Assembly: GCA_963835575.1 (NCBI GenBank)
Contig: CAWIGG010000002.1
Location: 384,001-448,000 of the forward strand
Direction of reading: 5' to 3'
Origin: an uncultured Spirochaetota bacterium
GTDB taxonomy: Bacteria > Spirochaetota > Brevinematia > Brevinematales > JAOACQ01
DNA length: 64,000 bases
Under the pieces are notes generated by a model. The model searched no databases and was not told where the DNA came from. It saw only the letters and a program-made list of their open reading frames with translations. Positions 17,723-18,468 of the stretch are shown one piece after another. Positions within the stretch are counted from its first letter, which is position 1. Each line of letters begins with the position of its first letter. The position numbers and the translations under genes are program-made.

Positions 17723-18349
17723 TCACCATGCCGCAGGTTTGGTTATTAAGCCACCCGATCCATCAGGAATTGATATGGGAAATTGACACCTTGACAATAA
17801 TTCATTTGGCAATGTTTTATCTTTATTAGCTACATTTCTAATTTCAACGGCGGCTCCTCTTAGCGGGTTGTTTGCCGGGACATAAACTACTATTTCTTTT
17901 TTGGAATTACATTCCTTAATCATTTTTAATGCAGGAACCAGGTCAGAGTCTCCGCTTACTAAAATAAATCTATCACATAGATCATTTATGCAATCATAAT
18001 ACATATTGAGAGCAATATTAACATCTGTTCTTTTTTCTTCAGGCATTTGAAAAAAGCGAGAGCTGGGATAATCACATCCTTTAACCAGACATTTGACTGT
18101 TTTATCTTTAAATTTGCCTAAAATAATCTTCATTTTCGGAAGTGTCTCCAAAGCGCGCAGATATGTTTCTTGATTTTGTCTATGGGCTCCAGTTACTAAA
18201 GCTGAAAAGTATTTTATTTTTTGAATATCATCGCCCTGCCTTAGTAAAGTAAAATATTTTTCAAGATTCAACCATTTATGATTAGTCCTTTTTATTGCTC
18301 CATAATATAAATTAAAACCATCAATGTAGATAATACTTCTTTTTAACAT
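17723..18349 (-). CDS. NYN (LabA/DUF88, PIN-like) ribonuclease
   Basis: YIDGFNLYYG, EEKRTDVNIA, LVSGDSDLVPA acidic active-site motifs; start at ATG 18349 after a GGGGT RBS. Confidence 0.92.
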   Translation of the reverse strand: MLKRSIIYIDGFNLYYGAIKRTNHKWLNLEKYFTLLRQGDDIQKIKYFSALVTGAHRQNQETYLRALETLPKMKIILGKFKDKTVKCLVKGCDYPSSRFFQMPEEKRTDVNIALNMYYDCINDLCDRFILVSGDSDLVPALKMIKECNSKKEIVVYVPANNPLRGAAVEIRNVANKDKTLPNELLSRCQFPISIPDGSGGLITKPAAW

Positions 18350-18359
18350 GATACCCCAC

Positions 18360-18389
18360 AAAAAAAACGGGTAGCCATATAGGCTACCC
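18360..18389 (-). terminator. Intrinsic terminator 5' of the NYN start codon
   Basis: 8-bp GC-rich stem plus 8 U on the minus strand. Confidence 0.8.
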
Positions 18390-18434
18390 AACCAGCCCGT
18401 AGGCCGGGGAGTCGTAAATAAATACATTCTCTTT
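18360..18434 (-). ncRNA. Candidate structured small RNA/leader upstream of the NYN gene
   Basis: Hairpin CCGGCC-UACG-GGCUGG (cUACGg tetraloop), then GGGUAGCC-UAUAU-GGCUACCC followed by U8; lies downstream of a consensus promoter; 5' end estimated. Confidence 0.65.
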
Positions 18435-18440
18435 TTATAT

Positions 18441-18468
18441 ATTATATAATATCGGTGTGAATTGTCAA
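18441..18468 (-). promoter_or_regulatory. Sigma70-type promoter for sRNA-NYN
   Basis: TTGACA (18468-18463), 16 bp, TATAAT (18446-18441). Confidence 0.75.

Follow-up and report, generated by a model that had tools for sequence, protein, structure and literature searches.

A small RNA linked to NYN ribonucleases across bacterial phyla and copied by viruses: an apparently undescribed module of probable RNA-antitoxin type

On the minus strand of the window, the whole 64,000-nucleotide stretch of DNA analysed here, a promoter, a small structured RNA, an intrinsic terminator and the gene of an NYN ribonuclease follow one another, and together they appear to constitute a real, conserved and hitherto undescribed RNA-antitoxin-type defence with natural phage mimics. 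The anatomy of the module is conserved and its RNA covaries, the RNA is linked exclusively to NYN genes in the bacteria searched, its position relative to the gene is free, and orphan copies are found in viruses for two RNA subfamilies. Judging from these sequence patterns, we regard it as probable that the module is a defence of the type III toxin/RNA-antitoxin kind whose toxin fold is new to that class; the RNA would be the antidote, and phages would counter the defence with RNA mimics.

Results

The module in the window

Table 1. Features of the module and of the element that carries it (window coordinates).
Feature	Position	Strand	Remarks
Integrative element	11690..18763		7.07 kb, low GC; 13-nt direct repeats at 11690-11702 and 18751-18763
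Tyrosine integrase of the element	11860..12903	+	Profile search
Xre-type HTH gene	17421..17702	+	Convergent on the NYN gene; not a conserved partner
NYN/LabA (COG1432-type) predicted RNase	17723..18349	-	208 aa; PADLOC HEC-09 family; acidic site intact
Hairpin 2 and U8	18360..18389	-	Conserved C-UAYAU-G loop; terminator hairpin 18389-18369, U8 18367-18360
Hairpin 1	18392..18407	-	Invariant CC/GG base, covarying inner pairs, free loop; in the window a UACG loop and one G-U pair
5' tail ACRACUCC	18408..18415	-	Invariant and single-stranded (alignment); unpaired in the fold of the core
Sigma-70-type promoter	18441..18468	-	TTGACA 18468-18463, 16 nt, TATAAT 18446-18441
26-codon remnant	18499..18576	-	Like the C-terminus of type IIG restriction-modification proteins; weak (E 0.02-0.5); directly before the promoter

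A sequence-only reading of this locus had proposed the promoter-RNA-terminator-RNase layout of type III toxin-antitoxin systems, and this order holds in the window and in most homologues (Table 1). The TTGACA-16-TATAAT promoter that it described is the sole 12/12 site among 26 promoter-like matches in 4 kb, with transcription predicted to start near 18434, and the GC-rich hairpin with its U8 tract lies where it had been placed, 10 nt separating the end of the terminator from the NYN ATG at 18349. The 81-nt segment folds with a z-score of -3.7, and none of 200 shuffled sequences was equally stable. As for the proposed non-coding RNA of ~75 nt, a structured RNA is present, but the conserved unit begins only at 18415 and measures ~56 nt, the initial ~19 nt of the predicted 75-nt transcript not being conserved. 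The unit opens with an invariant unpaired tail, ACRACUCC, a feature absent from the earlier reading and likely a protein-contact element. Two hairpins follow, the second of which forms the intrinsic terminator together with U8 and probably also belongs to the functional RNA. The C-UACG-G tetraloop with its G-U pair is likewise present in the window; as a family feature it was ruled out, since hairpin 1 measures 14-23 nt and its loop is free in length and sequence across 112 unique homologues, and the tetraloop of the window is incidental. In the proposed Rfam search neither the window RNA nor its homologues had a match that reached the gathering score; what matches there were stood at chance level.

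The tail also bears a likeness to the 16S 3' end and to the letters of the tRNA T-arm, which is not kept in distant subfamilies.

The identification of the gene as an NYN nuclease with intact acidic motifs was confirmed. Pfam gives NYN only (E 2e-11), the PADLOC HEC-09 profile matches over its full length (E 1e-44), D10, D109, D134 and D136 are invariant across 32 aligned homologues, and the catalytic motifs are intact in 104-107 of 112 homologues. The structure is predicted with confidence (pLDDT 92.8), and a fold search with the predicted model gave VPA0982 (2qip) as best match, followed by the MARF1 NYN domains. The public gene call, P0002, starts at 18505 (260 aa) and takes in the RNA. An ATG inside the terminator loop, considered as the true NYN start, was ruled out, being in frame and open in only 15/90. 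Residues 87-92 of P0001 include two invariant cysteines in a beta-hairpin insertion, where many distant homologues have CxxC; this insertion is possibly a zinc ribbon or an RNA-binding arm.

At 50% identity the family has 4529 representatives (E <= 1e-10). Homologues occur on 427 plasmid records, including ColE1-type plasmids of 3.5-5.4 kb with little other cargo, and one lies beside a mycobacterial prophage repressor. The window protein has the fold and acidic site of the NYN.COG1432/LabA-like group, which is of unknown function in the relevant part of a review (PMC5499597); the label 'HspA monooxygenase' borne by homologues traces to NicB, whose activity the same part of the review credits possibly to another domain.

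The suspected location on a mobile element was borne out by the tyrosine integrase and 13-nt repeats of a 7.07-kb integrative element, at the right end of which the module is cargo. The element has integrated where the stop of one conserved host gene overlaps the start of another. In four of the five relatives checked (G006, G008, G009, G010) the flanking genes abut, and because the fifth, G007, carries unrelated cargo at the same site, we take the site to be an integration hotspot. Any match to the window NYN protein was found in 4 of 31 genomes, its own included. Among the eight listed matches of the remnant at 18499-18576, five lie in annotated methylase/Eco57I/TaqI-C genes and three in unannotated DNA, and locus L063 has an intact Eco57I-type gene where the window has the remnant; remnant and gene together suggest capture from a defence island. 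Elsewhere in the window, 25909-33000 is probably another island: it holds an ORF of 456 aa that by eye resembles a transposase, and a second stretch of low GC whose skew is reversed.

A conserved, covarying RNA in close homologues

The conserved and covarying structure that the sequence-only reading had proposed to look for upstream of homologues was found. The exact motif ACRACTCCCC lies upstream of NYN in 148 of 155 close loci (those with at least 110 nt upstream, the window included and 7 short ones dropped), the genome-derived ones representing nine phyla or more and belonging for the most part to Planctomycetota and Acidobacteriota, and both stems covary. The seven non-exact loci comprise four variants (41-66 bits), one inverted RNA (72 bits), one downstream terminator half and one terminator only. 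In L069 the NYN gene is intact and only the terminator half of the RNA is left at the locus, which is evidence against an antidote role.

Parsing by sequence anchors succeeded for 137 of 152 motif-bearing loci, 15 with variant loops or linkers being dropped, and yielded 112 unique RNAs; hairpin 1 was counted on the motif anchors because a 2-3 nt linker makes MAFFT mis-register it. Paired cells numbered 330/336 in the inner part of hairpin 1 (shuffled mean 259, maximum 273) and 771/784 in hairpin 2 (655 when shuffled), with shuffles that ignore relatedness. On a plain MAFFT alignment hairpin 2 shows double changes at 7 of 8 pairs, a result reached in 0/500 shuffles and better than that of all slid registers. 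Hairpin 1 could be extended by two pairs around a bulge, an extension that fits all 112 sequences, yet is almost invariant. The terminator loop is conserved, reading UAUAU in 70/112. Of 108 homologues, 75 have a promoter no further than 65 nt from the RNA, against 3 of 100 control windows; in 47 of these 75 the motif begins 6-8 nt after the end of the -10 box, so that the tail is usually the 5' end of the RNA.

The remark that no co-transcribed protein antitoxin is evident also stood: a comparison of 952 ORFs neighbouring 160 loci showed no conserved protein partner, the largest shared family occurring in 5 loci, and the upstream neighbours are miscellaneous (51 scanned). This sets the family apart from VapBC, a type II PIN toxin-antitoxin system with an adjacent protein antitoxin.

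Distant subfamilies, and inverted, displaced and tandem RNAs

Distant NYN subfamilies have the same layout with RNA sequences of their own, and on a quick tree the RNA type tracks the protein clade. A script that looked for a hairpin and terminator just upstream succeeded in 30 of 48 distinct distant loci (left after removal of 5 duplicates, 1 short locus and 4 without an N-terminal match), compared with 1/400 own-genome genes and 1/165 neighbours. Its module thresholds were failed by 14/48, which speaks against an antidote role, several of these having visible modules.

Two lineages have the RNA gene in inverted orientation. L044 has it as a divergent gene (72 bits), and in L165, L204 and L209 a related RNA, its stems paired, is likewise inverted; a tree grouping all four was rejected (AU p 0.013, on a quick tree and with a test chosen after the clade tree had been seen). 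The scripted 'inverted' call by itself has a background of 9/165, and that for L200 was discarded as a sense module read backwards. Locus L103 has its terminator half downstream and convergent, cut by the contig end. That the position of the RNA is thus immaterial argues for action in trans; L069, with its intact gene and lone terminator half, speaks against it.

Such arrangements bear on whether a non-toxic NYN might instead bind or cut its own leader to tune termination or stability, the phage copies described below merely sponging NYN. The RNA is usually directly upstream with a terminator, the pertinent text on HEC-09, a family member, reports neither defence nor toxicity (10.1101/2024.01.29.577857), and RCd22 acts partly in cis according to the portion of its description concerned (10.1101/2025.04.15.648962), all of which would suit autoregulation. 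An RNA gene that is inverted, or downstream and convergent, has no means of attenuating the mRNA; such genes have nevertheless been retained, with paired stems where they are inverted, and phages would gain little from sponging a harmless protein, so that we consider autoregulation unlikely. A leader acting only in cis as an attenuator, the outcome that had been raised as contrary to an RNA antitoxin, is weakened by the inverted, downstream and orphan phage copies, although the usual layout accommodates it.

In L184, on a 4.6-kb E. coli plasmid, four tandem tail-hairpin units precede the terminator (1757-1900; periods 33, 33 and 29 nt), an arrangement like that of ToxI arrays, and two longer repeats are present in L181.

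Searching bacteria by RNA alone

Searched for in five test genomes, the RNA pattern matched once in each, at the NYN gene. Three matches in 401 Planctomycetota genomes were one at NYN and two non-hairpin (control matches, 4), and four matches in 301 genomes of one acidobacterial class were two at intact NYN genes, one at an NYN pseudogene with its RNA intact and one non-hairpin. The structured RNA thus stood before no non-NYN gene in these 702 bacterial genomes (401 + 301), and in the bacteria searched its linkage is exclusive to NYN; the unbiased count of true matches is small because two of them are centre genomes.

This strict one-to-one linkage, and the way in which the RNA sequence tracks the protein subfamily, could also be expected if the RNA served an active NYN ribonucleoprotein as cofactor or guide, in which case phage copies would be dominant-negative or borrowed cofactors. 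The RNA has no variable spacer-like segment beyond the short loop, and it outlives NYN in L280, where promoter and RNA are intact before a truncated pseudogene with an early stop, as an antidote would; we hold the cofactor reading to be highly improbable.

Orphan copies in viruses

In viral contigs the RNA pattern was found at 43 loci, of which 33 have both stems (26 unique) and 10 lack two stems and look like chance. A covariance model applied to 28 viral loci gave 25 scores of 28-70 bits. Because the search pattern demanded the letters of tail and loop, only the stems of the phage copies are independent evidence. The U-tract is kept in 7 of the 26 unique copies, and in 19 hairpin 2 stands without it. 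The nuclease family is absent from all 32 RNA-bearing viral records searched, seven of which are at least 90% complete while most viral records are fragments; the same nuclease query gave matches in other searches.

One copy lies between two tRNAs in a viral tRNA array (L237, 639-2926) where a class A RNase P RNA (127 bits) is encoded as well, and many sit after the stop codon of a major tail gene. In the phage family with this tail gene, the exact RNA stands between stop codon and terminator in 13 of 65 distinct loci, counted after dropping 5 short ones; inspection by eye showed variants in a further four, and at the remaining loci only the terminator is present. Presence after the tail gene requires seven changes on a FastTree phylogeny, at least two of them forced. 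Two phages of this family, L369 and L381 (contigs of L319 and L323), are without the first RNA after the tail gene and have the RNA of a second subfamily elsewhere in the genome. In the phage variants L338, L356, L359 and L352, tail and hairpin 1 are kept and hairpin 2 is enlarged or altered; because hairpin 2 alone is altered, tail and hairpin 1 may be the minimal unit.

A further reading does without any RNA-protein complex: the C-rich tail would act as an anti-Shine-Dalgarno element and repress translation of the gene that follows, NYN in bacteria and a tail chaperone in phages. The tail is able to pair with the G-run before the window ATG, and a G/A-rich ribosome site lies downstream in the tail-gene phages. 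The pairing probability is just ~0.12 in the window, however, GGGG or GGAG precedes the start in only 30/111 loci, the tRNA-array copy has no downstream gene, and the RNA is absent from about three quarters of the tail loci, which makes such repression very unlikely.

For the second subfamily, the inverted clade with its sequence-unrelated RNA, orphan viral copies were predicted beforehand, and 29 viral loci (23 unique) were then found, with 43/46 unconstrained stem cells paired. All but one of the 29 records are without NYN, the exception being a known NYN locus, and one record is at least 90% complete. The varied phage contexts might speak for a generic RNA stabilising or processing element of phages that NYN cassettes captured with no functional link. 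Its presence before no non-NYN gene in the 702 bacterial genomes, and the same NYN-or-phage split in two sequence-unrelated RNAs, render that origin very unlikely.

The Bacteroidetes-type RNA gave no orphan viral copies, 9/9 viral matches being on NYN contigs, and the enterobacterial RNA pattern had 0 viral matches; both results are further counter-evidence to an antidote role. An annotated phage collection held no full-length blastn match to the RNA.

Discussion

Each of the four alternatives weighed above fails on at least one of the arrangements found. On the type III-like defence reading that we favour, the promoter would yield mostly short terminated RNA and, by rare read-through, the NYN RNase; the RNA, an A/C-rich unpaired tail with two hairpins, would bind the nuclease in trans and keep it off. 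Phage infection or loss of the element would halt the RNA supply, and the freed nuclease would cut cellular or phage RNA, while phages would pre-empt this with their own RNA copy made from abundant transcripts (tRNA arrays, the 3' end of the major tail gene). It is from the sequence record that we infer binding, toxicity, release on infection and protection by phage copies.

The module has in common with ToxIN/AbiQ, CptIN and TenpIN the order of promoter, RNA, intrinsic terminator and RNase gene, the lack of a protein antitoxin and the location on mobile DNA. Their toxins are ToxN-like, whereas the putative toxin of the window has the predicted NYN/PIN fold (Pfam NYN only; 2qip and MARF1 NYN in the fold search). 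Type III antitoxins are usually tandem repeats of a pseudoknotted unit; the RNA of the window and its close family is a single unit of two simple hairpins, four units being seen only in the distant homologue L184. A conserved pseudoknot is not apparent, and the freedom of loop 1 in length and sequence speaks against one. Unlike in type III systems, moreover, the NYN-linked RNA gene can be inverted or downstream. A closer likeness is AbiF/RCd22 of Clostridioides difficile, in the relevant sections of whose description a short terminated hairpin RNA upstream of a nuclease, also of non-ToxN fold, acts in cis and in trans by direct binding (10.1101/2025.04.15.648962). AbiF is there an Abi_2-family protein linked to Cas13 ancestors, with the RNA motif Rfam RF03085, and neither Abi_2 nor RF03085 matches the window. 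The module is therefore a member of neither ToxIN/AbiQ nor AbiF; by analogy, it may work like type III toxin-antitoxin systems, AbiF/RCd22 especially.

HEC-09, which is of the same protein family as the window NYN by its PADLOC profile, has been found inside Hma defence systems and is described as a lone protein candidate (Payne et al., 10.1101/2024.01.29.577857); 'ncRNA' and 'non-coding' do not occur in the main text. A homologue cloned with ~150 bp of upstream sequence gave, in the text concerned, no defence against the coliphages tested, with no toxicity noted. This negative phage result is real counter-evidence to the defence reading. The construct joined the ~150 bp upstream to an added inducible promoter, by which, on the antidote model, the antidote would be raised. 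A description of an RNA linked to this NYN family was not found in the literature within reach, outside which lay most subscription papers and bioRxiv supplements.

For phage RNA mimicry there is a precedent in pseudo-ToxI of phage PhiTE, in the pertinent part of PMC3594212 a phage-encoded RNA copy of a host antitoxin, with the toxin absent, that needed repeat expansion in escape mutants. Here, in contrast, many wild viral contigs contain single copies that look intact, belonging to two subfamilies and lying within tRNA arrays or at the 3' ends of late genes.

We lean towards the broader view that there is a large cross-phylum class of NYN RNase/small-RNA toxin-antitoxin defences in which every subfamily has an RNA key to itself, and that wild phages have repeatedly evolved mimics of the RNA antitoxin, placing them among tRNA genes and behind late genes, at their 3' ends. 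With an RNA of 56 nt and an RNase of 208 aa, the proposed switch would be easy to test. If the view is true, the negative score of HEC-09 cloned with its leader under an extra promoter would have a possible explanation, and dozens of natural phage-encoded RNA anti-defence candidates would be at hand with predicted cognate targets. RNA mimicry would then be a common natural counter-defence, beyond a single laboratory-selected case, a PIN/NYN-fold toxin would join the RNA-antitoxin systems, and a function would be given to a large uncharacterised family with 4529 representatives and a place on 427 plasmid records.
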